The notes under the pieces are model-generated. The model had not been told where the DNA came from, searched no databases, and saw only the letters and a program-made list of their open reading frames with translations. Positions 10,812-62,200 of a DNA stretch of 64,000 nucleotides are shown piece by piece. The stretch comes from Mytilus trossulus (lineage: Eukaryota): NCBI RefSeq assembly GCF_036588685.1, contig NC_086375.1, positions 79,050,001-79,114,000 on the forward strand, given 5' to 3'. Position 1 is the stretch's first letter; each line of letters opens with the position of its first letter. Position numbers and translations under genes: made by a program.

Positions 10812-11931
10812 GAATCAAACAAGTTAAAATGCCAAATAATGTCAGAAGTCGTAGAGCTGTAATAACCCCAAACCGTTTTGGTGCAGTATCAGTGTCTATG
10901 GCATGCTTGCAATGATAGTGGTTGTAATGATATATTATGTAATTGTAGTAAAACTATGGTTGCAATTCGTGCAAGTAAAATGACTAAAATAGAGCCGAGA
11001 CAATGTTGACTATGTTATTGATGTATTGGTGAATTCGTCATTTAAAATGTACAGTATAAACAAGAAGTAAGTAAACAAGTAGTTTATTTTGTACAATTTG
11101 GAAATTAGTATGACGTTCATTATCAGTGAACTAGTATATATTTGTTTATGGGCCAGCTGAAGGTTGCTAACGGGTGCGGGAATTTCTCGCGACATTGAAG
11201 ACCTGTTGGTTACCTTCTGCTGTTGTTTTTTATATGGTCGGGTTGTTGTCTCTTTGACACATTCCCCATTTCCATTCTCAATTTTAAGTAAATACATAAA
11301 TAGATAAGACAACTATGGCAGTGATATTATATAAATCCATTTCACTTAATTAAAATTACATAACAATATTTGCATCCTAATAGGCAGTCGAATTTGTGTT
11401 AAAAAAAACAGTTTGTAAATACAATAATTGAAATTAACATGAATGCCCCAGATCAAGATTGCTTATTGATAATGTTTAAGTGGTAGACAGTTTCGGAGAA
11501 CATATAAAATGTGAAGCATTGTAGATGATATTAAATAATATTTATAAGCCATCCAATCTAGATATAACGTCCATGCATGTACATTATTGCATTATCTAGA
11601 TCATTTGCAAAGAAATGTTTTGTTCAAATCTATTGTTGGGTTCTATCAAAATTTAGATTTTTTAGCCACTTGGACTATTTTTCATATCTCGTTTTTTTTA
11701 ACACAAGGCATTCAAATTAAAACAGCAATTGACACTCAGGCCAACGGTGTTTTTTTTTTATCATACCATCAAATCATCTTAACAGAAAACTGACAGTAAT
11801 GAAAAGTGGCACATGTACTACATGAATTTATTTCAGAGTATCTTTCTAGGTAGGGCTATAAGTAGTTGTTTGTCAAAAAGATGTCTTGTCCTCGTGAGCT
11901 AGGGCATAACAAAATATTAAAGCTATTTAAG

Positions 11932-20130: not shown

Positions 20131-20440
20131 TAATTTATTTCATGTATTTGACCAATATATCAAAAACTATAATTAAGACTGAATTTTGCATCGCGATGAC
20201 CTTGAGGTAATTCCTATGTATTGCTATCGCATATATTTATATTGTGTAAATTAGTTTTGGATTTGCAACCGATCTATAAACATGATAAATACGCTATCAA
20301 TAAACGAGTGCAAAATAACATTCCTTATCGTTTGATATAAATAAATCTCTTCAATGAATACTGATAAACATATTTTTGTTTACAGCATAAGTTAATGATA
20401 TGGAAATGTTTTGTAGTTAGATATATATTTTTTACTTATA

Positions 20441-20920
20441 TATAAGTACGTCTGAACTAGTGACAACTTTACAACTGATTTTTCCATCGGATCACCAGCA
20501 GTGATGGTGATACATGGCTGTGTACATTCTGTATATACAACTCGTCTAAACATCAACCCGACAATGTTAGATCTGTAAATTTACTTTTGCATTTATTTTT
20601 GTTCATCCCTCACCGGGATTCGAACCCATGCTACTGAAATATCGTGACACCAAATCGCCTGCAATATAACCGTCGGGCTAGACCACACCACCACATGGGC
20701 TTCATAAAAATGAAGCTTTCGGTGGCCCGGTGTTACCTTTCCACGTCAGTTTTAATCTAGCGTCGTACTTCATTTCATGATATATAAGGCATGGAGATGT
20801 TATTTTTACAGATCAACTAAATTATCTATAATAAAGGATCCTACAAATCAATGTAAGATACAGTCACAGAAATAATTTTATTTATAAGTACGTCTGAACT
20901 AGTGTTAACTCTACAACAGA
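20441..20920 (-). mobile_element. tRNA-Leu-derived 442-bp SINE-like element, copy A (about 1.08-mer)
   Basis: A/B boxes on the minus strand (plus strand ggattcgaacc at about 20616-20626); terminal direct repeats at 20441-20478 and 20883-20920; flanked by TA runs. Confidence 0.8.
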
Positions 20921-20936
20921 ATATATATATATATAT

Positions 20937-21414
20937 ACATTGTTGGGTTGATGTTTAGACGAGTTGTATATACATTATGTACACAGCCATGTATCACCAT
21001 CATTGATGGCGATCCGATGGATACATCTGTTGTAGGGTTGTCACTGACTCAGACGTACTTATGAATATAATTATTTTCTGTGACTGTATCTTACATTAAT
21101 TTGTAGGATCCTTTACTATAGATAATTTAGCTGATCTGTAACAATAACATCTTCATGCCTTATATATCATGTACTGTAGTACGCCGCTAGATTAAAACTG
21201 ACGTGGAAAGGTAACATATGGCCACCGAAAGCTCTTTTATATGAGAGCCCAGGTGGTCGTGTGGTCTAGCGGGACGGCTGCAGTGCAGGCGATTTGGTGT
21301 CACGATATCACAGTAGCATGGGTTCGAATCCCGGCGAGGGTAGAACCAAAAATTTGCGAAAGCAAATTTACAGATCTAACATTGTTGGGTTGATGTTTAG
21401 ACGAGTTGTATATA
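20937..21414 (+). mobile_element. tRNA-Leu-derived 442-bp SINE-like element, copy B (about 1.08-mer, different permutation)
   Basis: A box TGGTCGTGTGG at about 21254, B box GGTTCGAATCC at 21321-21331; identical 36-nt direct repeats at 20937-20972 and 21379-21414; (TA)n on both sides. Confidence 0.8.
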
Positions 21415-23224
21415 TATATATATATATATATATAAACGAGTCTAAATTGAAAACTACGTTCAAATATATATATATATAAGTAAAAAACATTGATAATATC
21501 AATGCAAACGTACGAAAAATATATCAAATATATCAATGTATATTAAACACAGTTTCAGGTAAAGAGATATGTGATTTTTTTCTGTGACTAGTGCTTTTGA
21601 CCATCCACAAGAACTTGTTGTCATCCGATGTTCAGTACTTCAGTACTTTGATTAAATTTATGACGTGTTTTGTTCTGTTGTAATACACTACTGTCATAGG
21701 TGAGCGTGAAGGTTACAACGTTTAGACCCGCGCTGCATTTATATGCACCTGTCCGGAGCCTGTTGTTCAGTGGTTGTCGGGGTTCATAGGAGTTTCACGT
21801 TTGTTATATACATTACACCAATGGTTTTCCTGATGAATTGTTTTACACTAGTAAATTTTTGATCCTTTACAGCTTAAAAGTAGGTGTGAGCCAAGTCTCC
21901 GTGGCGTGTTGAGGGTCGATCTTTGATCTATGATTGTTAACTTTTATACATTTTGACTTAGATGAAGAGTTGTCTCATTGGCACTCATGCCACGTCGCTT
22001 TGTTTAAACTAAAAGTTTTATTACTAAAGTACTTGCGTTTGGCTTTGAATTTTTGTATGGGGTGTATAAATTCCATGTTTTTGTGCTTTGTATCTATCCG
22101 ATGCGTTGAGCTTTTTTCAACTGATCTTCATAGTTTGTTCTTCTATTTTACTGTTACACAACTGTCCTACAATGTGGGAAGTGTTTGGTCCAGAAAACAT
22201 GTTTAACCTCGTCACATTCTCTATGTGCATGTCCAAAGTCTGTCTATAATGCAGTTGTTGTCGTTTCAACGGTTACATTATAGTTGTTTATATATTAATA
22301 AACCAGGCCATTTGTTTTCCCAATTTATTTACCCTAATTTGTCATCTGGGCCCTGTCCGTCATGGGTTTTGCTCATTGCTGAATGACTTCGGTGACCAAT
22401 GTTTGATAACTTCTACCATCACAGTTTTTATGAGAATACTTAGACAGTAGGCTCATTAGATATACTCATTGGAAAAATGTATGCCCTATCTGTAATTGAG
22501 GTTGTCATTGGTTCATGTCTGTCATGTTAGTTTTTCGTAAATTATTAAAGGATTAAACACGTTTGTTCTATATAGGTTATCTATGTGTTTCTTTTGTAGG
22601 CTACTGACAAACCGTGACATCCCGAGCTTCGATGTAAGAAAATAGTACAAAATTGAATCCAGTGTATATTTGTTATTCTCGTCGGATTATGTCTAATGCT
22701 TAGTTCGTTTCTGTATGCGTTACATGTTTTAAATGTTGTGTCGTTATTCTCCTCTTATATTTAATGCGTTTTCCCTCAGTTTTAGTTTGCTAACTCGATT
22801 TTGTTTTTGTCCATCGATTTACGAGTTTTGAACAGCGGTATACTACTGTTGCCTTTATTTGAACATTTGCCCGTTGGTGTTATTTCTCATGTTTAAATAA
22901 ATGTAGTTTTATATTAATAATAATGTGAACAGACTTTCTTTGGTATAGACAGTTGTCTCATTAGCAATCGAATGGTATATATTCATTTTTGTAAATTTTT
23001 GTAAAAAAGATAACTATTTGTCATGAAAAGAAAACAGTTTAAGCAACTATTTGTTTTTCTGTGGAAAACTCTTTTAAATTATTTTATTGTTCATGTAAAG
23101 GAAAGGTTAATGCCTACTAAAGAACAAGTCAGCATGCACTTTCGAAACACCATGTTAATATTGAACCCGTTAAATGATCACTTTTGAATATCATGCCATT
23201 TCAATGGCAAACCAACCAATAAAC

Positions 23225-30870: not shown

Positions 30871-33800
30871 GTTACATGTACTAGCTCTAACTCAAGTAAG
30901 ATAGAGATACATTGTATATATAATTATAGTCCTTCATTGACATATCATGCTCCCCCGGAGGAGCAAAAGGCCCAAGTAAGTAAATAATTCTATTGCATTG
31001 TCTTTTTTATAAATGTACTCTGTAAAGAAACTTGAAAGTTTTTAAATAAAAACATCAAAATGTAGTTTTTGCATAAAGAATACATTTTATACAATGAAAT
31101 AAGTACATACCGACAACAAACACTGAATAGTTGTAATTAGAATCCTTTAGTTTAGCACGGCATTAGAAAGATATTTTGTTGAACGTTGGTATGGTTTTAG
31201 GTTTGATCAAGCCCTATGCTAATCTCATTGTGTATTGAAATTAGATATTGAAATCTTAAAGATTAAGCTGTTTAAAAGATCCCCATGATTATTTAAGTTC
31301 AATCAGTGATCGATATATATTCATAATCTCAAAGATTTAATGCTTGCAGTTAGTATATTTACAAATGCATTGTACTTGTATTATCTTAACACGGAATATG
31401 AAATTATGCGTAAATGAATTAATAATGCAAATTGGTTATTACTCAATGTTACTTTAAAAGTAAGTTCTAGTAAACCAATAAGGAAGTGTTCCTTTTCTTA
31501 AAAAAATCAACTTAAGACTAAGTAACATTGTTTCGAAAGGCAACCAGGGACTCATAATTATCCTATAGTATATGTCATTATGAGAGCCGGTAATAGGGTG
31601 CACATATCACATCTGCAACTTTTATACTTTCTGAAAAATAGCCCAAAAAATATCCGGAAATTGAAGTGACAAATGCATTGACTACGCGTAAATGTAGCAA
31701 AAAGGTTGAATTATTTGAACTACAAATAACCTTTTTTTCAAAAACCTGTACTTAGAATTTGAAAAATGCATTTTATTGCCTGTCAGTTTGTGTAACTTTT
31801 TTAAATTGTTATGGAATTCCGCATGCTCTAGTTGCTTACACTTAAGCTACATACAGTACCATATAAGTTGTATACAACATATACCATCACTTAGCGCCAA
31901 ATTTTCTCCATTGTCTATTCATCTTTTGTTCCGCCATTCTGATTTTTAAGAGTATACGAAAGGATAAGTGTATGTTTTCTTTTTCGTTATCATAGATATA
32001 TTTCACAACTACAAATCTATTTATGGCATATTGTACATGTACATGTATGTATAATAACTCTCTTCATTGAATGATAGAATAGAGAATGGAAACGGGGAAT
32101 GTGTCGAAGAGACAACAACCCGACGAACAGCCCATGGCTACTAATATGTCTTCAACTCAGAGAAAAAACAGACACTCTGCTTGCCCGTAAAAGAATGTGT
32201 ATGCTTATGACATACATGAAAGGGCATTTTGAAAAGGTGCTCACAAGACTGGGTTCTTTATTTCCATAATCCTGCTGCTCCCTCCCCAACCTTTTGGTAT
32301 AGTTTACAGTTGATAATAAAGATCTCAACGATTTTCTATTATTTTAGTAAATATACTGTAAACAACAGCAAAATATCTGAGACAGGAAATCACATTACGA
32401 TGTCAATTTCTGCATTATCATGTTTAAGAGGCAAGATGAATCCTGCCTCCGTGTTCGTTTTTTTACGCTGTGTTGAAGACCCATTGGTTGCCTTGAACCA
32501 TTTTCTGCTCTTAGATCGGGTTTCTCAATTTACCCAATTCCATTCTCAATTTTATGACCTTTCAAACTTGAATTAAATGTTCAACAACATTTTCGAATAA
32601 AGCTGTAGCGTAATCATTTGCACGGGGTGAACTGTTTGCAGATTGTAATTTAAATAGATACTTACACATTACATCGAGTTTCGTATTGAAATAGATTCCA
32701 AATTGTGAACAACAAAAAATGGTAACATTTTTAAGGGGTTATTATGTTTTTTTAATTGTTTTATTACAGAAAGATTACCAGTGGTCTATAAGTGCCATAA
32801 TGTACAAGGTATAAAACATATTGTACTTCTTTTTTAGAATTTCTATACGCCGGGGGAGGGGGGGGGGGGGTAAATCAAATGGAATTAATTTTCTGCTCAA
32901 ATTTGAAGTAAATTATTCATACGATCAACGTCTTCGGTATCTTATATATTTCATTTGGTAAAATGAGAATTTTGAGATTGTCTTTCGTCGTTTTCGTGCA
33001 GCTCCTTCTAAATAAGTACCTTTTTTCAAAAATTGCCATTCAATGCTAAACGAAATACATGATGATTCTCATACATTACATATACAAGTTGTATGTAAAA
33101 TCTTACAGACATCTGTGACAAGCCTAGTTAAGGTTCCTTGGCCTATGTCGGATACATATGTACTGGTACCTCATTAGCAATATCTTAGATTTGTACGCAA
33201 GAACATATGGAGCCACATACTTTACATGTTCGGTATTTTACAAGTTTTACAATATTTGTATATTCCGAATACCAACTATTTACGGAAAAAAACATTTAAA
33301 ATGAAACTATAAACATTAACTATTTTTAATCAAATTTATTTTGAAAAAATATAAAAAATGTTATTTACTGAAACATATAAAAAATATAAAAAATGTTATT
33401 TACTGAATCGGTCCAACATATATGTTCCGCATATATATAACTTAGGTTTATAATAAGAAAGAAAATCAACAAGGCCGAATAACATTTCTGACCAATGCAA
33501 ACTAGAGGTTAATGTCAAATTCGCACCTGCCATATATCTAAATAAAATAAATATTTTTTATAGAACTTTTCAAGTAAGAAGATTAACGCATAAAACATTC
33601 CAAATAGAAATGATAGTTTAAAACAACAATTTATATAAATTAGGCTAAGAAATTAGGTGATAAGTACCATGAGTACCTTTCGTCTCACTTTTAGATACCT
33701 CGTATATTTATAAAATCTAGAAACACAGTTTTTCAGTACACATGCACGAGGGTGTGGATAGGGTTAACCGAATAGAGATTAATGGGTTAAAACTAAGATA

Positions 33801-34069: not shown

Positions 34070-35512
34070 AAAATTGAGAAAGGAAATGGTGAATATGTCA
34101 AAGCGGCAACCACATAGAGCAGACAACAGCCGAAGGCCACCAAGGGGCCTTCAAGGTAGCGATAATTCCTGCACCCGTAGATGTCCTTTAGCTGGCCCCT
34201 AAAAATATGTATACTAGTACAGTGATAATGGACGTCATACTAAACTCCGAATTATACACAAGAAACTAAAATTAAAAAAACATACAAGACTAACAAAGCT
34301 CAGAGACTCCTGACTTGGAACGGGCGCAAAATTGCGGCGGGGTAAAACATGTTTATGATATCTCAACCCTCCCCCTATACCTCTAGCCAATGTAGAATAG
34401 TAAACGCATAACAATACGCACATTAAAATTCAGTTCAAGAGAAGTCCGAGTCCGATGTCAAAAGATGTAACAAAAGAAAATAAATGAAATGACAATAATA
34501 CATAAATAACAACAAACTACTAGCAGTTAACTGACATGTCAGCTCCAAACCTCAATTAAACTGATTGAAAGATTATGTCTTCATCATATGAATATCAAGC
34601 ACAATCCCTCCCGTTAGGGGTTCAGTAGCATACTATCATAAAGTATATGAGAAGAACATAACCCGTGTCATGCCAACAACTGTTTTTTTTTAAATAAATG
34701 TGTTTAGTTCCGATGCAAAGACCCTATAAGTGAATCAATATTAAAGCCAAAATATGCAATATTTAATGACCTGCCAACACTATCGTAACTATATCCCTTA
34801 ATAAGTCTGTTTAAAGGTTTTGTAAGCTTTTGAGGTGAATACTGACATTTTTGTGCTTTGTAAAGAATGTAAAAATAAAACAAAAATGGATGTGAAGTAC
34901 CTGAACGTATAAGATGTCTGCATGTTAAGCTATATTTATTATTATTACCTTATACCGGTGATAAAATTTAATAAATGTTTTGACCAGTTTGTGATATCGA
35001 AAACCCTGGTGTAATAATTTTTCAGTAATACATAAATTTCTCTCGCTAAAATCTAATACGTTGTTTATACATACACGGGCGAATCGTACAAGTTGAGATA
35101 TATAAACACCATAAGATGGTGACAAGAGAACTCACCATCTAAAAGTGGATAATTAACAATAGGAAATGAAAAATCCTCTCTTTTATCATAAATAATTGTA
35201 TTAAGCTTCCCGTTAATGATATAGATATCAAGATCGAGAAAAGGGCAGTGGTCATTGTTAGTATTAGCTTTATTTAAAGTAAGTTCAACAGGATAAATTT
35301 CTTTAGTATACATACCGAAGTCGTCATTATTGAGAGCCAATATATCATCCAAATATCTAAAAGTATTGTTAAATTTTTGTATCAAATGTTGTTTCGATGG
35401 GTCTTTGCTAATTTTAGTCATAAATTGTAACTCATAACGATACAAAAACAGGTCCGCAATAAGTGGTGCACAGTTAGTCCCTATTGGAATTCCATTAACT
35501 TGACGAAATATC
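34070..35512 (-). mobile_element. 5'-truncated Penelope-like retroelement (RT core and thumb, frameshift near 35125, plus 3' region)
   Basis: GIPIGTNCAPLIADLFLY, FRYLDD, PFLDL, YDKREDFSFPIVNYP, SYGVYISQLVRFAR. Copies of the 3' region occur at 61186-61581(+), 11090-11285(+), 5080-5215(-), 32080-32200. Confidence 0.88.
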
Positions 35513-36026
35513 CACACCTTCATTATATGTATGTAGATCCTACAAAATATTGAAGCTGTACCTTCAAAATTGTGGGAGGAGATAGCCAGACAAAATAGGC
35601 AGTGAAAAATAGCGAAACAATTAAAGAATACAGAAATGAAAAACGCCTCATTTATACATCTTGCATCGATGAATAATAAAAATAATGTCCATATTTGAAT
35701 TGACCAGGTCAAAAATATCTTGGAATCGAAATTTTGCATCGTATTCCCTTGGCAGAAAATGAATATGTCAGTTAAAAATATAGTATTGCCAAAAAATGCT
35801 TTATTAACCAAAAACATGGAAACGTTGGCCAGTATTCTGTAACAGTTAATAAAATAAGATTAATATATTTGATAAACCAAAATATTAGTTTTTGCTATAA
35901 AGATATTACCGCTTATTCAACAATTTTAAGTCGATACGTCTTTAAATGTGTGAAAATTGTTGATATTAAGTTTAAATATCTAACGAGTGTCGTTTTTGGA
36001 GCTTGCCTACTGAACGCTGTGGTAGC

Positions 36027-42000: not shown

Positions 42001-44720
42001 GATATTCAAAAAGCGGTAACACTCTTAAAACTAATCCAAAAGGTTCTAAATTTACTGTGTGTTCTTTTCATATCTAAAGCGTTGATTAGAAACGAAAATA
42101 AAAAAAATATTTTTTTTTGCATTTTTTGAGATTTCAAAAAAACACTTTTTTCCCCAAAAATTAGAAAAAAACAATATTTCAACCCATTAATAACAACATG
42201 ACCATAACTTGATTAGCATATTGAATATTTTTAAACAAATTTTAAATTTTATTAAGTACTTAGATAATTATGTGTCGATTTTTTATTCAACTTTCCGCAA
42301 ACCTAATTTACACCCGATGACCGTTTACACAGAATTTAGATACTTTCCGACAAGTTTTGATTTTCATTATCACATGTACATACATTGCAAATAAAAGCTT
42401 TTTAAAATATTGTATCTCATTTTGTTTTATATTTAATACTTTTTGATAAATTTTATTACAAAGTCGTGTATCGTTTCTTTTGTTGACTAGTATATTAAGA
42501 ACTTAGAAAAGTAAAGTAATAAAAATTACCCTTTTTATCAGTTTTGTAAATCGATTACCCTTTGTTAATTTTACTAGTTGATGGAGCCTGGTCACAGTGG
42601 GGTAACTTTGGTCAGTGTTCAGTGACTTGTGGAGGTGGACAATATACAAGATCCAGAACTTGTTCTGATCCTTATCCACAAAATGGTGGATTGTCATGTT
42701 CAGGAGATTCAAGCGAGTTTACTGATTGCAATACACAGGCATGTCCAACGGCATCATCTGGAACATATGTACAGGTATAAATTGAAACTTGTCAAATTGG
42801 TCTAAAAAATGAAGAACTCAAGTTGATGCTGTTTCAAACGTTCAAGTCTTTAAAGGCACACTGTTGTGAATATAATTTTGGTGATCCGACTTAGTTCAAT
42901 GTGATTTTGATATTAATTGATTTTAAATAAAATCTGATCGAATTAATTTTTTGACATTATTTAAAAGTTACCTCTTGGAATCTTATGTTTCGACAGTGCA
43001 TATCAATGTTGACTTTCTGTTAAAATTGCCATGGAAAAAAATCAATGAAAGTTCGTTTATATATCGTATCCTCTTAAGTTTCAAGTTTCTCCCTTTAATA
43101 AAATCAAAACCAATATAAAAATATTAAATATAAAATTTACAATGCATTGTTCATGACACATATACGAATGGGTTTCTGGTGGATGACCCATGGATTCAGT
43201 ATGGTTATATACATAACTCCGTTGTTTATCAAAAATCGGTAACGGTTTGAATATCATAATGTAACTAATAAATATTTTTACCGGATTAAAGCTATTTTTT
43301 GTAATTTGAATAATTGTATCTAGCATGACTTTTTTCTTTCTTAAAAGTTGTGTCCTTCTGGTTGGTTTACCTGTGCTACTGGTTCCTCTAACTGTATCGA
43401 GGATGGTTTTAAATGTGATTGCATGGATGACTGTGGTGACGCAAGTGATGAAACTGAAAACTACGCTGGGTGTTCTCCTCAGCAACTCGCCGTCTGTACG
43501 GCTAAAAGTTCATCTACACGAAGTAAGTATCCATCTGACTGAGGATTACACCAGCACCTCGCCGTCTGTAGGGCTAAAAGTTCTTCTACCCGCCGTAAGT
43601 ATCCATCTGACTGAGGATTACACTGGATGTTCTCCTCAGCACCTCGCCGTCTGTACGGCTAAAAGTTCTTCTACCCGCCGTAAGTACCATCTGACTGAGG
43701 ATTACACTGGATGTTCTCCTCGGCACCTCGCCGTCTGTACGGCCTAAAGTTCTTCTACCCGCCGTAAGTATCCATCTGACTGAGGATTACACTGGATGTT
43801 CTCCTCGGCACCTCGCCGTCTGTACGGCCTAAATTTCTTCTACCCGCCGTAAGTATCCATCTGACTGAGGATTACACTGGATGTTCTCCTCAGCCCCTCG
43901 CCGTTACTATGTTTGGCTCAAAATGCTTTTATACTTATTAAGTATCTATCTGACTGAGAATTAGAGCACCTCGCCTTTTGTGCTTCCGCACATCGGAATT
44001 ATCTATATTATATGACTGGAAAATATAAGCGAAAAGCACCAAAAAAACATATAAACTCATTTATAAACGCCATGACAAATTAAACGAAAAACCGAAAGAC
44101 ACATACCATTACACAAAATACAACATAGAAAACCAAAGACTGTCTGAACAACACAAACCCCACAAAGAATAAGGGGTGATTACAAGTGCTCCGGAAGGTA
44201 AGCAGAACCTACTCCACACGAGGCACCCGTAATGTTACTCAGTTTTAACGGCAAATACCTAGCTGGAGCCTGGTATTGCGGTGAGCGATTCGTGCTCTTA
44301 TAGGAGTCTCTAGTTTGGGATACCAAATTGTGATATAAAACACAAGGACAAACATTTTTTTCTTCTAATTCATAGATTGTTCTACATATCACATAATTCA
44401 ATGTATTTTGTTATTGTTTTTGTAACATGTCATTATGTCGCAACGTTTAAATTATCCGCTTGTTTCGAGTTAATTTATATGTAGAGTTCACGATCGCTTT
44501 AGAATTACAGTCAACTCACTATGTGTAAGGCAATATTTAGCCAAGAATATGAGATAGGATGTTTCATTGTTTTAGATATATGCCTGGTTTTTTTTATTTA
44601 AGTAAAATAATAAAAAGTGATTTCCATAATTGTCTTATATTTATTTATTTTTTAGTCATAGCTTCACTCGTCAGCTTTCTAGTAGCCACGCTCGCATGTG
44701 TTATGAAAAACTATCATTAG
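36027..44720 (+). CDS. Secreted/GPI-anchored mosaic protein: signal peptide, IgGFc-binding N-terminal domain, 2 acidic DxDxDG (MopE-like) motifs, 4 TSP1, LDLa, hydrophobic tail; 819 aa
   Basis: Exons 36027-36036, 36297-36356, 37179-38449, 39209-39299, 39746-39796, 40382-40573, 40843-41013, 41195-41371, 42578-42774, 43348-43522, 44656-44720 (2460 nt, all phases consistent). Motifs: DNEGTEF..DHLVEQL..DPMMMIIPPVEQF..YETYGF (FCGBP-N); WxxW..CSVTC..RTRxC (TSP1); CDCMDDCGDASDE (LDLa). Confidence 0.9.
40095..40197. repeat. Short palindromic element in an intron
   Basis: aaaatattcaacgagtgaccgaacaacac...gtgttgttcggtcacgagttgaatatttt. Confidence 0.6.
41615..42492. mobile_element. Tc1/mariner-type MITE, about 880 bp
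   Basis: TIR TACTAGTCAACAAAAGAAACGATACA / TGTATCGTTTCTTTTGTTGACTAGTA flanked by TA on both sides. Confidence 0.85.
43453..43975 (+). repeat. 84-85-bp tandem repeat built from the LDLa exon end plus its splice donor
   Basis: GTAAGT at 43523, 43595, 43680, 43764, 43849; each unit copies tgttctcctcagca.ctcgccgtctgtacggctaaaagttc. Confidence 0.92.
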
Positions 44721-45100
44721 TGATCCACAACTTCACCAGCACACTACAACGAGTGATCCACAACTTCACCAGAACACTACAACGAGTGATCCACAACTTC
44801 ACCAGCACACTACAACGAGTGATCCACAACTTCACCAGCACACTACAACTAGTGATCCACAACTTCACCAGCGCACTACAACGAGTGATCCACAACTTCA
44901 CCAGCACACTACAACGAGTGATCCACAACTTCACCAGCACACTACAACGAGTGATCCACAACTTCACCAGAACACTACAACGAGTGTTCAACAACTTCTC
45001 CAGCACACTACAACGAGTGATCCACAACTTCACCAGCACACTACAACGAGAGATTCACAACTTCACCAGCACACTTCAACTAGTGATCCACAACTTCACT
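44719..45100 (+). repeat. 33-bp minisatellite (about 11 units) beginning at the stop codon, in the 3' UTR
   Basis: Unit agtgatccacaacttcaccagcacactacaacg. Confidence 0.95.
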
Positions 45101-47644: not shown

Positions 47645-50522
47645 TTTTGTCGAGCCTGCGACGGACTTGTGTCGTAGAGAGCTCGACATAGGGTTAGTGA
47701 TCCGGCGGCGGCGTTAACAAACTTCTTAAAAGTTTTATATTTTAGAAGGTGTAAGAAAAGAGGGACAAAAGATACCAAAGGGACTGTCAAACTCATAAAT
47801 CGAAAATAAACTGACAACGCCATGGCTAAAAATGAAAAAGACAAACAGACAAACAATAGTACACATGACACAACATAAAAAGCTAAAGAATAAACAAAAC
47901 GAACCCCAAGTCCTGGATGTTTCATACTTTGTAAATAGATGCCTTATATTACGAAGTTTCTGTGTGTCACATGTTCATTGTCCTTGACCCCATTTACATG
48001 GTTCAGTGACTAATTGAAAAAAAGTTAAGTTTTTTTTGTATTGTAATTTCCCTCCATTTATGAGTAATAGGATAACTATCTTTAGTATTGCGGACCTTGC
48101 AAGGTCTTCATGTCCGTCAGACAGTTTTCTCCAGACCTTGACTTCATTCATTTTAGTGAACAAGGTTTATTTTTTGTGCAGGTCAAGTCAAATTAATATT
48201 ATAAGCAATATGTCTAGTATATTTTGTGTATGGTGTACATGTCCAACTGACAGGTGTCGTCTGACCTTGACCTCATTTTCATGGTTAAGTGGTTATACAT
48301 GTTTGTTTTTGCCAGTTTTGGTCAATTTTTAGCTCACCTGGCCCGAAGGGCCAAGCGAGCTTTTCTCATCACTTGGCGTCCGGCGTCCGGCGTCGTCCGT
48401 CGTCCGTCGTCGTTAACTTTTACAAAAATCTTCTCCTCTGAAACTGTTGGGCCAAATTAAGCCAAACTTGGCCATAATCATCATTGGGGTATCTAGTTTG
48501 TAAATTGTGTGGCGTGACCCCGCCAACCAACCAAGATGGCCGCCACGGCTGAAAATAGAACGTAGGGGTAAAATGCAGTTTTTGGCTTATAACTCAAAAA
48601 GCAAAGCATTTAGAGCAAATCTGACAGGGGAAAATTGTTTATCAGGTCAAGATCTATCTGCCCTGAAATTTTCAGATGAATCAGACAACCCGTTGTTGGG
48701 TTGCTGTCCCTAAATTGGTAATTTTAAGGAAATTTTGCTGTTTTTGGTTATTATCTTGAATATTATTATAGATAGAGATAAACTGTAAACAGCAATAATG
48801 TTCAGCAAAGTAAGATCTACAAATAAGTGAACATGACCGAAATGGTCAGTTGTCCCCTTTAGGAGTTATTGCCCTTTATGGTCAATTTTTAACCATTTTT
48901 CGTAAATCTTAGTAATCTTTTACAAAAATCTTTTCTCTAAAACAACTGGGCCAAATTAAAACAAACTTGGCCACAACTATCATTGGGGTATTTAGTTTAA
49001 AAGATGTGTGGCGTGACCTGGCCAACCAACCAAGATGGTCACCACAGCTAAAAATAGAACATAGGGGTAAAATGCAGTTTTTGGCTTATTACTCAAAAAC
49101 CAAAGCATTTAGAGCAAATCTGACAGGGGAAAATTGTTTATCAGGTCAAGATATATTTGCCCTGAAATTTTCAGATGAATCAGACAATCCGTTGTTGGGT
49201 TGCTGCCCCTGAATTGGCAATTTCAAGGAAATTTTGCTGTTTTTGGTTATTATCTTGAATATTATTATAGAAAGAGATAAACTGTAAACAGCAATAATGT
49301 TCAGCAAAGTAAGATCTACAAATAAGTGAGCATGACCGAAATGGTCAGTTGACCCCTTTAGGAGTTATTGCCCTTTATAGTCAATTTTTAACAATTTTTT
49401 GTAAATCTTAGTTATCTTTTACAAAAATCTTCTCTGAAACTACTGGGCCAAGTTAATTATAGATAGAGATAATTGTAAGCAGCTAGAATGTTCAGTAAAG
49501 TAAGATGAACAAATTGTAAGCAGCTAGAATGTTCAGTAAAGTAAGATGAACAAACACATCACCATCACCAAAACACAATTTTGCCATGAATCCATCTGCG
49601 TCCTTTGTTTAATATTCACAAAACCAAGGTGAGCGACACAGGCTCTTTAGAGCCTCTAGTTCTTATACTAAGTGTATGAGATATGTCTACTGTATTTGGT
49701 GTAAGGAATGATTGTATGATGTGCATGTACAACTGGCAGGTGTTATTTTACCTTGACCTCATTTTCATGGTTCAGTGGTTATATACTATAAGAAAAATGT
49801 CAACTATATTTGGTATATGGGACAATTTTATAATGTACATGTCGGTCTCGCCGGTTTTATTTGACTTTGGCCTCATTTTCACAGTTCATTTGCTAAGTAT
49901 TATTTTTTTTATTAGTTTTTCTGCTATAAGTAATAGGTCAACTATTTTTGTAGCATGGAAGGATTGTAAGCTGTATATGTCTTTCATGGTAAAGTGTGTT
50001 TCTTAGATACTATAAGCAATAGGTCAACTATGATGAATGCATAGATTAATTGTAACGTGTGTATGTCTGACTGGCATAGATCATCTGACCATCACCTCAT
50101 TTTGGTGGTTCATTGTTCGATGTTACATTTTCATGGTTAAGTTTGTTTCTTAGATACTATAAGTAACATGTCAACTATGTTAAATGCATAGATTAATTGT
50201 AAGGTGTATATGTCTGCCTGGTATGGTTCATCTGACCTTGACCTCATTTTGTAGGTTCATTGGTCAATGTTTAGTTTTCTTGGTTAAGTCTGTTTCTTAG
50301 AAACTACAAGCAATTGCATGTCAACTATATTTAGTGTTTTAAATGATTGTCAGGTGTACATGTATTTCTCGTTTGGTGTATCTGATCTTAGCCTCATTTT
50401 CGTGGATCATGTTAAGATAGTTTTAGTAAAGCTTTAATTCATATTTAAGGTTATGAACATAATATTTATGGTTAGTAAAGAAGGCCGTGGAGACATTCCA
50501 GCGTGTGTATTTTGCATTCTTG
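47645..50522 (+). mobile_element. Outer HINE-type element with degenerate repeats of about 120 bp, interrupted by nested insertions
   Basis: 5' ttttgtcgagcc..gctcgaca plus a (ggc)n tract; repeated ctgaccttgacctcattttcatggttca; 3' ggagacattccagcgtgtg..cttg. Contains a retroelement 3' fragment (47757-47905) and the inner HINE. Confidence 0.55.
48327..49661 (+). mobile_element. Helentron-associated HINE, nested, with about 2.3 central repeats of about 500 bp
   Basis: 5' TTTTAGCTCACCTGGCCCgaaGGGCCA, (cgtc)n microsatellite, tandem core, 3' AGGTGAGCG plus hairpin AGGCTCtttaGAGCCT then CTAGTT. Confidence 0.85.
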
Positions 50523-51757: not shown

Positions 51758-51877
51758 CACAGGCACTTGTTTCTGTCAATATGGGGTTTACTATCAATAC
51801 CAGTATAAAAAAAACACGTGTTTTTTTTATACTGGTATTGATAGTAAACCCCATATTGACAGAAACAAGTGCCTGTG
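51758..51877. mobile_element. Perfect 120-bp spacerless palindrome; MITE with 8-bp TSD (P- or hAT-superfamily-like)
   Basis: CACAGGCACTTGTTTC...CAC|GTG...GAAACAAGTGCCTGTG; TSD AAGTTGGC at 51750-51757 and 51878-51885. Confidence 0.9.
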
Positions 51878-56223: not shown

Positions 56224-59200
56224 ATGGACAACAACCATACATGTATGACAGACTATGTGATACCAGTGTATAATTATCTTGATAGATGTATTGATGAGTT
56301 ATACCAAAATGCTTCTTCCAACAGTCAACCAGTCTTAAAATTCAGAAGAAAGTTTAAAACCACACACATTAAAAGTAGCAATTGCAGTAACTCTGTGAAA
56401 GGTCATGATCAAAACACAAATAAAGTTTCTGAAGTCAATGGGAAAAAATATTTTTCAACTGAAAATAGAAATTTAGAAGATGCAGAAAATGGTAGTCTCT
56501 TGTCACACAATGTTTTGATGGAAAAGAAACATTTTTCAAATGAAAACTTAAACATGTTAAATAATGAAAAGTACGCAGAAAGAGGTAAACTGTTGCCACA
56601 GGCTGTGATGACTTACAGCAAAAAGTTTGACCAATGCAAAGATTTCCACAAACAAAATATTCAAAATAACGTAGACAATTCTTACTTACAGCAGTTTGCT
56701 TTAAAAAGCGAGGGCAGAAAAGGTACTGTTAAAACTCAAAAGCTGAAAGGTGACCCTTCATATTTGGAAATAAGCTCTAAGCCCAGGATTGAGCACAAAA
56801 AACATTTTGTTAGATATGAAAAGGAAAGATTCTGTGCTGCAGCTACAGAGAACATTATACATGTAGATAGTGAGAATCAACAGAAATCTCAAGCAATGGA
56901 TAGTGAGAATCAACTGAAGTCATATTTTGCACCACATAATTTAAATCAGATTGCCAACAGCAAGAACATGCAGCAAAAAGGTAAAATATATTACATACAG
57001 ATCTATGCATTTTTTTGCGGTTTTTTAAAGGCGGTTATGGGGGTAATTTTTGCTAATCATTTTTAAAAAGCTCACCAAATTGATTTATTTACATGGTGTA
57101 AGTTTTACAGTATTTGTTATAACACTTTGATTGTACAAAAGAGTGGTCACTTATATGATATACAATGTACATTTTTTTTTTATTCATTTTAATTTATAAC
57201 TTATAAAAGAATATCAAGATGTGGTATGATTGCCAATAAGAAAACTATGTACAAAATGATGTACAGTACCCTAGAGGCCTAGACCAAACTGCTAAGGATG
57301 ATGATGTACATGTAAACAACAATAGGTCATTGCACAGCCTTAAATGTACAACAATAAACAATGAGTCATATAGTAAGGCATAAACAAGATAAAATTTCCT
57401 GGCATTGCTTAATTCTTAACAAATCAAAATAATTTAATTTTGGATGTTACACGTCTTCTGGTTGGCTGACAGAGTGTTGTCTATCAGCTCATAGACATAA
57501 TTTTGTCATGTGACCATGATGTAATCAACATTTTTTCATGATTTATTCTGGCTTAAAACCGAATTTAGAATTTAATTATAAAGAATGATTTACTTTTTTC
57601 TGTCTATTTGAAATCACTTAAAATTGTGGTGCATACTTTAAAATAACACGCAGCGTCGCTACACAGGTTATTCAGTGTGCGACAAATTTTTGATGTGATT
57701 TCTTCATAGACAGAAAAAATAACAGTCATTCCTTAAAGTGAAAACCAACAACCTCATTTATTTTTTATAAATAAACACGAGAAAAGATACATATTTTGTG
57801 TGACTTTTGTACAATTAACTTACTGATCTATAATGTTAATGTTTATATTAAAGTACAATTCTATACATTGTTATGGTACATTTATTTGAAATATTATTTT
57901 ATCCATTTTTTCTACCAGATCCACCTAGGCTGAAAGAAAATGATTTGATTAATTTGAGTTTTGACATGTTGTTGGAAAATTACAACAAACCCACAAAATT
58001 GCCAGAATTTAAGTTCAGATTGAAAAGTAAATCAAGAAGTTTGCCTATTTGTAAAGTTGACCAAGATTTTATAAATACTACAGAACAGACATGGTTAGAA
58101 TCAAGAAGTTTGACTATTTCTAAAGTTGAGGAGGATTTCAAAAATACAATTGGGCAAACACGGTTAGATACAAGAAGTTTGCCTTTTTGTAAGGTTGACC
58201 CAGCTTTTAATAATACCACAGAGCCAACACGATTAGAATCACATAGTTTGCCTATCTTGATTGCTGTTGATGCTGAAGAACATACTACAGATTTAACACC
58301 ATTAAAGTCTAAATGTTTGCCTTTGTGGAAGGTTAGCCATGCTGTTGGAAGTACCACAGATCCAAAATTGTATAAATCAAGAAGTTTGCCTTTCTGCAAG
58401 GTTGACCAGACTGTTGAAAGAACTACACAACAAAACCCCCCAAAAAATTGTAAGTGTCTGAGATTGATGATTGATCATCAATTTTGAGTCAATTTTATAT
58501 TCTCTGCACATTAATGTTCAAAAGTCTAGGGTAAAGTTGATTAGTGTGAAGTTTTCAAAAACTACATTGTATGACTTATTATGAAGTTTATACAATCATT
58601 GTCAGGTGAAATTGTCAATCTGAATACATATTTTATATACATGCATACATACTGTGATTTGCAGTATGATATTTTGTTTACAGTTGTTTTGAAATTGACA
58701 TTAATTTCAATTAAACATGTTAAATGTTTTAAGTCATTTTGATAAAGGACTATTTATATTTTATGTGAAATAGATTAATCATTGTTTCAGATGAGATCAT
58801 CAATGTTCTAGGTCCATGTGAGAAAGAGGATAGTGACACAGGAAGTGATAAATCTGGGATTACATCTGCTAGACAAAGTAACTAAATAATTACATCTACG
58901 AGACAAAGTAACTCAATAATTACATCTGCTAGACAAAGTTACTCAATAATTACATCTGCTAGACAAAGAAACTGAATAATAACATCTGTTAGACAAAGTA
59001 ACTCATTAATTACAGTGCTAGACAAAGTAACTCAATAATTACATCTGCTAGACAAAGTAACTCAATAATTACATCTGCTAGACAAAGTTACTCAATAATT
59101 ACATCTGCTAGACAAGGTAACTCAAATATTACATATGCTAGACAAAGTAACCAAATAACTACAGCTGCAAGACAAAGTTACTCAATGATAACATCTGCTA

Positions 59201-62200
59201 GACAAAGTAACTCAAATATTACCTCTGCTAGACAAAGTAACTCAATAATAACATCTGCTAGACAAAGCAACTCACATATTACATCTGCTAGACAAAGTAA
59301 CTCAATAACTACATCTGCTAGACAAAGTAACTCAATAATAACATCTGCTAGACAAAGTAACTCAATAATAACATCTGCTAGACAAAGTAACTCAATAATA
59401 ACATTTGCTAGACAAAGTAACTCAAATATTACATCTGCTAGACAAAGTAACTCAAATATTACCTCTGCTAGACAAAGTAACTCAATAATAACATCTGCTA
59501 GACAAAGCAACTAAATAATTACATCTGCTAGACAAAGTAACTCAATAATAACATTTGCTAGACAAAGTAACTCAAATATTACATCTGCTAGACAAAGTAA
59601 CTCAAATATTACCTCTGCTAGACAAAGTAACTCAATAATAACATCTGCTAGACAAAGCAACTCAATAATAACATCTGCTAGACAAAGTAACTCAATAATA
59701 ACATCTGCTAGACAAAGTAACTCAATAATAACATCTGCTAGACAAAGTAACTCAATAATAACATTTGCTAGACAAAGTAATTCAAATCTTACATATGCTA
59801 GACAAAGTAACCAAATAATTACATCTGCAAGACAAAGTAACTCAGTAATTACATCTTCTTGACAAAGTAACTCAATAATTACATCTGCTAGACAACATAA
59901 CCAAATAATTACATCTGCAAGACAAAGTAACTCAATAATTACATCTGCTAGACAAAGTAACTCAATAATTACATCTGCTAGACAACATAACCAAATAATA
60001 ACATCTGCTAGACAAAGTAACTCAATAATAACATCTGCTAGACAAAGTAACTCAAATATTACATCTGCTAGACAAAGTAACTCAAATATTACATCTGCTA
60101 GACAAAGTAACTCAATAACTACATCTGCAAGACAAAGTAACTAAATAACTTTTATTTGTAACTAATTATTACTATCATTTGAAAATGTAAATGGTCCTCA
60201 TTTTCTTAAATACACCTGTGCAGTTTTTAAGTATGGAAGGATACAAAATAACAGCTTAATAAAATAAACAACTGAAAAAAAACAAAAAAACAGAAGAATG
60301 AAGTATGGGGGATTCAATGTTAATTGGATATTGTTGGTATAGGCTAGAAATTATACTTTCAACAAACTACCAATTTGCTAAAGGCTTTTGAAGATTTTTG
60401 AAAGACAATGAAAACAAATGTCCATGCAAATGCAACAATTCATCAAACCAGGAAAATTGATATCCTAGAAAATAAACAAATCCACACATATGTCAATGTC
60501 TAATCAGTGTTTACAACATGTACAAGGGGGGCGTAAACAGTCTCAACTTACCTTAAGGAAAACTGCTTTTAGATGAATAAAATGAAAAGTTATTTGTGCA
60601 TGCAGTTTATATGGTAAAGGAAAAGCTTTACTTTGAATTGTATCATTTCCATTTTCAGCCAGTGAGATAACGTTTATATATATAGCCTTAATTTACAATG
60701 CAACAAAAAAATTTCAGCAGCCAATTATACATGCATATCCAGGACAATACCATGTCAATTAAGTACGAAGTTATCCTGTTATGTACTAGAATGACATGTT
60801 TAGCAGGATTGTTTGCCAAATTGACAGCAAATATTTTATGATTTTGTGTTTAAAATGTGTTGAGATATAACTCACTGATTATCTGAGAAGAAAAATTGAA
60901 GGCATATCGATAATCAATTTTATAATATATCATGATTTCAGTAAAGATTAATCACATTAAATACATTTTTTTATTGTTTCAATATTTACTCTTTTTAGGA
61001 AATAAAGATGATAAATCACTAGATATTTCCAGAAGGAAGTTAGAGGGAAGAAATAGTTCAGAGCATAAGTAATTATTTTTTTTCTGTCATCCTTAATTAA
61101 ATAACAATAAGTCTGTGAAAATGTTTTGATGTCCAGTGACTAGTGAGCTGATGCTATTATGGTTTACACTTTAAATTTATTTTCTTTGGTTACATCTTCT
61201 GACATCAGACTTGGACTTCTCTTGAACTGAATTTTAATGTGCATATTGTTATGCGTTTACTTTTCTACATTGGCTAGAGGTATAGGGGAGGGTTGAGATC
61301 TCACAAACATGTTTAACCTCGCCTCATTTTCGCACCTGTCCCAAGTCAGGAGCCTCTGGCCTTTGTTAGTCTTGTATTATTTTAATTTTAGTTTCTTGTG
61401 TACAATTTGGAAATTAGTATGTCGTTCATTATCACTGTACTAGTGTATATTTGTTTAGGGGCCAGCTGAAGGACGCCTCTGGGTGCGGGAATTTCTTGCT
61501 ACATTGAAGACCTGTTGGTGACCTTCTGCTGTAGTTTATTGTTGTCTCTTTGACACATTCACCATTTCCATTCTCAATTTTACTTTAAACTTTAAAGTCT
61601 GGTATAATCTAAATTCCTATTACTTGGTGCTCTATTGAGATATTCAAAATGATTTGTTATGTAATCACATATATACATCAATATTGTTCTTTATTCTAGA
61701 AATCATAAAGACATGCATAGAAAATATAAAGTAAGTAGAAAAGAAGAGGATGCCTTAAACAGGAGACCTAGAGTCAGTGACGGATTAAAACAACATGCAA
61801 TGAAAACAGATCGTCTTCATGGTCATAGCTCAAGACACAAAAGTAGACATGATAGAGAGTATAGAGAAAGGCATTCACACAGAATCAAGAAACATAAGGA
61901 AAAGTCCAAACATAGAAAACAGGATGTTAAAACATCAGAAAAATCACTACTGAGTGATATTGTAACACCAAGAGTTGACAAAGGTGTCCAAGCATGTGAA
62001 AGTGATAGAAAAACAAGCAAAAATGTGGTTTCTTTACAAAATAAAATTGACTGTAATAAAATAGATAAACTATGTCTCACAAGACCATATTCAAAAGGTT
62101 CAAAAATAGACAAGGCCAGTCACAAAGGAAGTGGAAATCGCAATACAAGATATTCATATGATGAGAAGAGAAAGAAAAAGGGAAGTTTTGAAAAATCCTA

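Follow-up and report, generated by a model that had tools for sequence, protein, structure and literature searches.

A permuted, tRNA-headed repeat of Mytilus trossulus as a possible Penelope-mobilised circular RNA with a hammerhead-like motif in its rod

A short non-coding repeat of 441-442 nt in the mussel Mytilus trossulus raises the question of how a unit that carries a tRNA-like head, and that appears to fold back on this head, is expressed and copied. The stretch of DNA analysed here (the window; 64,000 nucleotides of contig NC_086375.1, positions 79,050,001 to 79,114,000) is eukaryotic, has ~33% G+C and is rich in repeats and introns. An earlier, sequence-only reading proposed that the two ends of a Pol III monomer would meet at a hairpin loop formed with the head, enabling ligation or a template jump by a reverse transcriptase (RT), and that a conserved bulge nearby could be an undescribed ribozyme or an RT-binding motif. 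The interpretation that we prefer, with a probability of roughly 0.45, is a retrozyme-like circular RNA, mobilised by a Penelope-type element, that has an internal Pol III promoter and a rod that locks a predicted ribozyme. The features on which the argument draws are given in Table 1.

Table 1. Positions (in the window) of the features of the repeat and its surroundings.
Feature	Position	Strand	Description	Basis
Copy A	20433..20920	-	one unit plus ~48 nt; inverted neighbour of copy B	
Copy A, same region as the rod	20659..20776	-	rod partly broken; hammerhead helix I adjoining the core absent	
(TA)n spacer	20921..20936	.	between the 5' ends of A and B (head to head)	sequence
Copy B	20937..21408	+	442-nt unit 20967-21408 plus a 5' overlap of 30 nt	BLAST against doubled unit; overlap alignment
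Long rod	21170..21287	+	helices 21170-21180/21277-21287, 21184-21192/21264-21272, 21215-21226/21252-21263 and 21231-21236/21243-21248	fold
Rod, bulge	21193..21214	+	22 nt	
Rod, internal loop	21227..21230/21249..21251	+	GAAA/CCA	
Rod, apical loop	21237..21242	+		
Hammerhead-like register, minimal type I	21194..21238	+	predicted cut between 21234 and 21235 (GCUC^UUUU)	descriptor scan
Register, helix I	21194..21197/21235..21238	+	AAAA with UUUU	
Register, core	21198..21204	+	CUGACG(U/A)	
Register, helix II	21205..21206/21225..21226	+	GG with CC, plus inner stem	
Register, GAAA	21227..21230	+		
Register, stem III	21231..21232	+	GC, palindromic	
Register, UC	21233..21234	+		
TGACGT, ATF/CRE-like half site	21199..21204	+	overlaps hammerhead core; a plausible Pol III start lies ~45-55 nt downstream	function inferred
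T-run	21235..21238	+	Pol III terminator-like; also 3' strand of hammerhead helix I	
Box A-like TGGTCTAGCGG	21262..21272	+	doubles as 3' strand of the rod's second helix	sequence
Box B GGTTCGAATCC	21321..21331	+		sequence
(TA)13	21409..21434	.	at the 3' end of B; likely target microsatellite	sequence
Decayed RT fragment, Naiad-type motifs	35065..35859	-	possible helper class; extends to ~34100	

The layout of the copies is informative in itself. The 5' overlap of copy B (20937-20966) is identical to its 3' end (21379-21408) over 30 nt. Copy A, with ~88% identity to copy B, is permuted at a different point, ~100 nt further on, its overlap corresponding approximately to 21026-21073 of B, and the two copies of this overlap differ at ~5 of 40 positions, which fits either age or non-identical tandem templates. 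A third copy (L001), found on a marine metagenome contig, is 99% identical to B, shares its permutation point and consists of one unit plus 50 identical nt; judged by this near-identical copy in another data set, the unit is young. At 1300-2221 of that contig, the repeat adjoins what by eye resembles bacterial sequence; the contig is possibly chimeric, and therefore its 5' flank is unreliable. All three copies exceed one unit length, with no full dimers seen, and in all three the overlap is at most 50 nt, for which the chance is ~0.001 under uniform 5' truncation over one unit (n = 3). Two permutation points occur among the three copies, each of which terminates at a TA run, and the loose ends of reads and contigs concentrate at two 3' points (21404-07 and 21062-70) matching the ends of the copies. 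The joint of the unit (21408 to 20967) was present in both DNA runs (19 and 47 contigs); one DNA run carrying the unit is labelled 'mollusc metagenome'. The combination of short overlaps with differing break points is what would be expected from once-round copying of a circular template. In the collection scans, the unit was found at one locus in metagenomes, the viral collections gave no matches, and the prokaryote genomes gave 7 matches of an 18-mer, which is about the chance level. Six RNA contig sets share 66-79% of the words of the unit and were left out of the evidence. Two further observations concern the flanks: a perfect 17-nt inverted repeat (20428-20444 and 21471-21487) brackets the entire pair of A and B, and the 55 nt after the (TA)n of B are similar to the 3' end of copy A, as if they belonged to a related TA-targeting family.

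Taken together, the copies display the partial tandem structure, the inverted 5' neighbour, the short extension and the microsatellite target of non-autonomous Penelope elements, and the unit is very probably a permuted element of this type. A model of once-round copying of a circular template has been proposed (PMC4209133). Naiad copies have been described as partial tandems at (TA)n targets, with an inverted copy on the 5' side and a tail of 30-40 nt, and non-autonomous head-to-tail relatives have been described in algae (PMC8557442). The unit agrees with Naiad, and with non-autonomous Chlamys elements such as MRC1, in its (TA)n targets, its partial tandem structure, its inverted neighbour on the 5' side and its extension of 30-50 nt (PMC8557442). 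In contrast to Naiad, it has no ORF and carries tRNA-type promoter boxes and a hammerhead-like motif, whereas Naiads are reported to be without canonical hammerheads (PMC8557442), and the motif strings of the unit were not found in the line-wrapped Naiad/Chlamys supplement of that paper. The decayed RT fragment in the window matched Pfam RVT_1 with an E value of 0.004, which falls short of the cut-off, and its GTNCAP motif is common to Naiad-1_Skow and Naiad-1_Pfla (PMC8557442, supplement). BLAST of the unit against the region of the window containing this fragment gave no match. Shorter pieces resembling the 3' end of the fragment lie at ~11080-11286, 32075-32124 and 61175-61587.

The unit also resembles the bivalve tRNA-derived SINEs (PMC11481361) and the TRIMp3 elements Helenus and Cassandra (PMC10886601), which are short and non-autonomous and have type 2 Pol III boxes. 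Unlike in these elements, the head lies internally in all three copies, the ends are permuted, and target-site duplication, LTR, PBS and PPT are lacking. A canonical tRNA-derived SINE was therefore rejected, since boxes A and B were found and the 5' head, the fixed 3' tail (there are two different 3' ends) and the target-site duplication were not. None of the 28 Mytilus rows in the available SINE table has the length of the unit or a TA tail (PMC11481361).

The pairings described in the sequence-only reading, that is, two helices joining the stretch upstream of the head to the head, the GAAA/CCA internal loop and the hairpin that it closes, were all recovered in copy B, and an outer helix (21170-21180/21277-21287) that was absent from that reading lengthens the rod to four helices. 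The head itself was upheld in part: boxes A and B, which we take to be matches to the consensus and a putative promoter, are accompanied by a T-arm, but ARAGORN found no tRNA, and the head therefore consists of the boxes and the T-arm without an acceptor stem. The rod of copy B has an MFE of -59.8 kcal/mol (z -7.05; equalled by 0 of 200 shuffles), as against a z of -2.2 for the opposite strand, and it persists in a circular fold of the whole unit. In circular folds (30 shuffles each), z for the head-sense versus the other strand was -5.2 versus -1.8 for B, -4.5 versus -3.3 for L001 and -2.7 versus -2.7 for A. The remainder of the unit (20967-21160 and 21350-21408) is as rich in hairpins as had been claimed, being 67% paired in the circular fold and including a GAAA-capped hairpin at ~21350-21369.

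Conservation of the rod is less uniform. The free fold of copy A differs from the rod (z -2.0); when a GCUAGA/UCUAGC helix is forced, a B-like fold is obtained at +1.7 kcal/mol above the minimum. Copy A breaks 2 of the 9 pairs of the outer of the two previously named helices and 4 of the 12 pairs of the inner one, and L001 breaks a fifth. The claim that sequence had changed while pairing was kept in the hairpin holds for A against B, where 3 of the 6 pairs are double-changed, but the rod is otherwise poorly kept in A. Over A, B and L001 together, 92% of 112 cells pair, and 4 double changes occur among 38 pairs, a number matched by 7 of 500 shuffles in a control that ignores relatedness. Three of these four changes are adjacent in the apical hairpin and may represent a single event, and covariation in the rod, as pairing-kept changes on three sequences, is suggestive rather than proven. 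Among the variants listed (40 of 168), T21177C and G21280A (at the same U-G pair), T21217C, T21219C and C21226T keep the rod, and C21184A, A21218C, G21221C and C21225G break it. The bulge had been described as identical between copies, and the same 22 nt were indeed found in A, B and L001; however, T21204A accounts for 45% and 31% of the contig depth in two DNA runs.

As for the nature of the bulge, it resembles an undescribed ribozyme less than it does part of a minimal hammerhead, for which it would provide helix II and the 5' part of the core, with helix I supplied by the T-run. This register is assembled from the bulge, the GAAA and the T-run, is of the dimer type, and places the cut within the apical loop of the rod. 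It matches B and L001 and not A, and it is the sole match in the window under the same descriptor, and shuffling produced none, either in 20,000 units or in 30 windows; this descriptor (one core mismatch, 2-bp helix II, palindromic stem III and 4-bp helix I) was set after the motif had been seen. G12 A13 A14 A15, the G10.1-C11.1 pair, the palindromic 15.2-16.2 and U16.1-H17 are all present, the sequence being GAAA-GC-UC in B and L001 and GAAA-GC-UU in A. Within the core (C3 U4 G5 A6 N7 G8 A9), the sole mismatch is at position 9, which is U in A, B and L001, and the allele T21204A restores the canonical CUGAnGA core. In addition to its share of the DNA contigs, A9 was found in 49 of 76 reads of an unstranded RNA run and, in a stranded run, in 19 of 44 antisense and 184 of 1639 sense reads, U9 making up the other 1455 sense reads (89%). 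Changes in the hammerhead core usually cause drastic loss of activity (PMC3088659).

Helix I comprises 4-5 pairs in B and 4 in L001, all of them A-U, and is missing in A. With the minimal hammerheads of Penelope elements, the register shares a helix I of 4-5 bp, G10.1-C11.1, the palindromic 15.2-16.2 and a dimer-type stem III (PMC4209133). It differs from them in that helix II, which is 7-8 bp in those elements (PMC4209133), consists here of 2 bp, an internal loop and an inner stem of 3-4 bp, in that there is no extra base between positions 9 and 10.1, and in that A9 is present in part of the family. When 21190-21242 of copy B was folded alone, helices I and II formed unforced, whereas L001 alone formed helix II and no helix I. 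G21221C, the most frequent allele in the RNA (694 of 943 sense reads), removes a pair of the rod and adds one to the inner stem of helix II (4 instead of 3 bp). With C21225G (197 of 938 sense reads), both helix II and the rod are disrupted, unless a compensating change is among the remaining 128 variant rows. The energy of the register (-0.6 to -2.0 kcal/mol) is far weaker than that of the rod (-57 kcal/mol), and therefore it could form only on nascent RNA. The flagged stretch is thus predicted, from these folds, to be a two-state switch between a weak hammerhead-like fold and a far more stable rod. No Rfam family reached the gathering level over the window, and a search of 20300-21600 at E up to 10 gave 19 chance-level matches, none of them to a ribozyme. 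Taken together, we consider the bulge motif probably hammerhead-derived; that the candidate hammerhead processes the RNA at present is a more tentative proposition, to which we give somewhat less than even odds. Other assignments were tried and rejected: a register with the apical hairpin as helix III has C at 16.1 and no helix I, registers on the first GAAA have no helix II, and twister, pistol, hatchet, hairpin and HDV-like folds did not fit in a comparison of their consensus features by eye.

Expression was assessed in a stranded RNA run (X21; 6% sampled, 8.71 M records), with the unstranded run (X24) for comparison and reads of at most 151 nt; the expression pattern thus rests on one stranded run. 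In the stranded run, 4847 of the 8.71 M records fell on the unit (556 per million), as compared with 41 per million in the unstranded run. The strand ratio was 21:1, with a depth of 948-2052 on the major and 26-156 on the minor strand, the major strand being the sense of the tRNA head under the usual library convention, unconfirmed by the run record. The joint from 21408 to 20967 was crossed by 947 reads with 134 different starts, as against 26 loose ends at 21407, and the share of reads entering unlike flanks was 0.1. Over the loop (21237-21251), the sense depth was 979, between neighbouring bins of 948 and 1244, and no site at which many molecules start or stop was listed in this run, nor was there a pile-up of read ends at 21234/35. 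Reads that run unbroken round the unit indicate either a circle or a multimer, two forms that look the same at a read length of 151 nt; on balance, we lean towards the unit RNA being circular. A separate feature of the stranded run is a pile of ~700 extra sense reads over ~21058-21208, about one read length, with one end in the bulge and the other at the permutation point of copy A, and with a GACGT motif adjoining both ends. Two haplotype markers hold a 21% share inside this pile, and it is therefore not a single PCR clone.

These results can be arranged into a cycle for the preferred reading, a locked ribozyme in a circular, Penelope-mobilised RNA. Abundant RNA of one strand, unbroken over the unit junction and the loop, is observed. 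It would derive from a longer-than-unit transcript of tandem copies, made either by Pol II or by Pol III that starts in the upstream copy and partly reads through the T-run, since a T7 run should stop Pol III. While the polymerase occupies the T-run or has only just left it, the newly made U-run could pair with AAAA (21194-97) and complete helix I before the 3' strand of the rod is available, and two such motifs, joined via the AGCU palindrome, would cleave after C21234. By analogy with known retrozymes, an RtcB-type ligase would then join the 2',3'-cyclic phosphate and 5'-OH ends, held together by the GCUC/GAGC hairpin, with the seam in the apical loop. The rod, at -57 kcal/mol far below the roughly -1 to -2 kcal/mol of the register, is predicted to prevent re-cleavage. 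Finally, a Penelope-type (Naiad-like) RT/endonuclease might use a nicked (TA)n target to prime at TA-rich parts of the circle and copy one round plus 30-50 nt, leaving permuted copies. Within this cycle, the features in the sequence, the permutation of the copies and the unbroken RNA of one strand are observations; the polymerase, the cleavage, the ligation, the circle and the helper we infer.

A simpler explanation, which we regard as unlikely though among the stronger alternatives, dispenses with the circle: the RNA would be read-through of one or a few tandem arrays, the element would be a non-autonomous partial-tandem repeat of Penelope type that contains a tRNA-derived insert, the hammerhead would be a dead relic, and the rod would have arisen by fold-back duplication of the tRNA head. 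Multimers and circles look alike in short reads, two or three haplotypes dominate the RNA (shares of ~20% at five sites), U9 prevails in the sense reads, inverted copies can arise from Penelope-type insertion itself, and copy A has largely lost the rod and has overlaps that differ. The uniformly short overlaps with two permutation points, the strand asymmetry of the fold, the pair-keeping changes at G-U pairs and the small share of reads that exit the unit argue against this explanation.

The bulge might also be kept as DNA. TGACGT-type ATF/CRE sites occur near -50 in the 7SL, EBER, vault and 4.5S genes (PMC7279448, Table 1), and the TGACGT of the unit, which is created by the T allele at 21204 and lies at -52 if the start is A21251, could be such an upstream element before the next Pol III promoter in a tandem. 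This reading, which is compatible with the others and which we also rate as unlikely, could account for the displacement of A9 by U9 in expressed copies, given that the T allele makes up 89% of sense RNA compared with 55-69% of DNA and 57% of antisense (Fisher p 1.4e-7; the reads are not independent). However, the -31/-24 region would be very G+C-rich, unlike that of the 7SL, EBER, vault and 4.5S genes, the -52 placement depends on an assumed start, the T enrichment may merely mark a young subfamily, and the site accounts for 6 of the 22 bases of the bulge. Under a more elaborate version, improbable as a whole, the unit would be a self-sufficient molluscan retroelement with a Pol III circular RNA, and three roles would be combined in a single stretch of 45 nt: helix I would be formed by the Pol III terminator, with a pause at the T-run setting off cleavage; the core would be the ATF/CRE site in DNA, with the T/A polymorphism trading transcription for cleavage; and box A, as the antisense strand, would keep the ribozyme locked in the circle.

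Slightly less probable again is the original proposal that Pol III starts just past the T-run and stops at the next one, with the hairpin-held ends being ligated or bridged by an RT jump and no hammerhead being involved. Boxes A and B are found 20-30 nt past the loop, a plausible start is exactly one unit away from the T-run, and the depth is ~20-25% lower over the hairpin. The loop was said to hold T4-5 in both copies, which is correct for B (T4) and A (T5), whereas T7 is found in L001 and in most RNA reads; loop length varies among copies (T4ATAT, T5A and T7), and contigs under the same species label have T7 (~43%) and T8 (~27%). Free Pol III ends at this loop are not supported, given the ~900 sense reads that traverse it with a sharp U7 (757 of ~903, ~84%), neither a pile-up of ends nor a ragged tail being seen, and a template jump would leave the RNA itself discontinuous. 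A pair of 5'-triphosphate and 3'-OH ends is, moreover, not a substrate of RtcB. The idea that ends meet at the loop nevertheless survives in another form, as the best candidate joining site does fall in the apical loop. An LTR-type TRIM with a tRNA promoter (Helenus/TRIMp3), its overlaps being the LTRs, is already largely refuted and highly improbable: Helenus is known in bivalves and combines terminal direct repeats with a tRNA-like sequence (PMC10886601), but the overlaps of 30-50 nt are unequal between copies, contain no tRNA-like part and end in (TA)n, the two LTRs with tRNA-like sequence, the PBS, the PPT and the 4-bp duplication of TRIMp3 were not found, and three motif strings of the unit were not found in the supplement of PMC10886601.

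Among known systems, the unit is closest to the SINE-like hammerhead repeats Sm-alpha of Schistosoma, whose tandem units carry a Pol III promoter together with a type I hammerhead, by which multimers are resolved into monomers (PMC6765202). In Sm-alpha the hammerhead lies after the promoter, and cleavage leaves the promoter at the 3' terminus of the RNA (PMC6765202). In the mussel unit, by contrast, the predicted cut comes 28 nt before box A, the terminator-like T-run doubles as helix I, and the motif, which is minimal and has U9 in most of the RNA, is blocked by the 118-nt rod. With the non-LTR retrozymes of animals, the unit shares a non-coding length of a few hundred bases, abundant self-paired RNA, the type I layout, copies of more than one unit and a probable Penelope helper. 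The retrozyme families of Mytilus galloprovincialis are 350-390 bp (PMC7229834; PMC7761336; bioRxiv 10.64898/2026.07.22.740005), and animal retrozymes are said to have no promoter (PMC7761336); the words tRNA and promoter do not occur in the available part of bioRxiv 10.64898/2026.07.22.740005. The cores of animal retrozymes are canonical, in contrast to the 441-442-nt unit with its boxes A and B and a motif locked by self-pairing as in plant retrozymes and viroids. Because the core deviates at A9 in all three full copies and the RNA is only likely to be circular, the unit is not filed as a member of the retrozymes. In the literature searched, with Repbase/Dfam and mussel retrozyme sequences outside its scope, no description of the unit, no match to its motif strings and no tRNA-derived, polymerase III non-autonomous Penelope-like element was found, and the family may already be named.

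Against animal retrozymes described as promoter-less, the unit is unusual in that it would supply its own promoter. The origin of more-than-unit, permuted Penelope-type insertions is an open question, and a short, highly expressed, young unit with a predicted cut site, two core alleles and two mapped priming regions makes the circle-template model of such insertions directly testable, as it does the coupling of Pol III termination to self-cleavage. If there is no circle, the unit would be an ordinary non-autonomous Penelope-type repeat with a tRNA-like insert. A scan for sigma-70 promoters was discarded as irrelevant to this organism. Elsewhere in the window, minisatellite arrays were found at 58859-60148, 44719-45099, 43552-43904, 48417-49456 and 49683-50410, with repeat lengths of 30, 33, 85, 499, 114 and 147 nt and with long open frames in the 30-nt and 33-nt arrays, and a perfect 120-nt palindrome with 60-nt arms and no spacer lies at 51758-51877.
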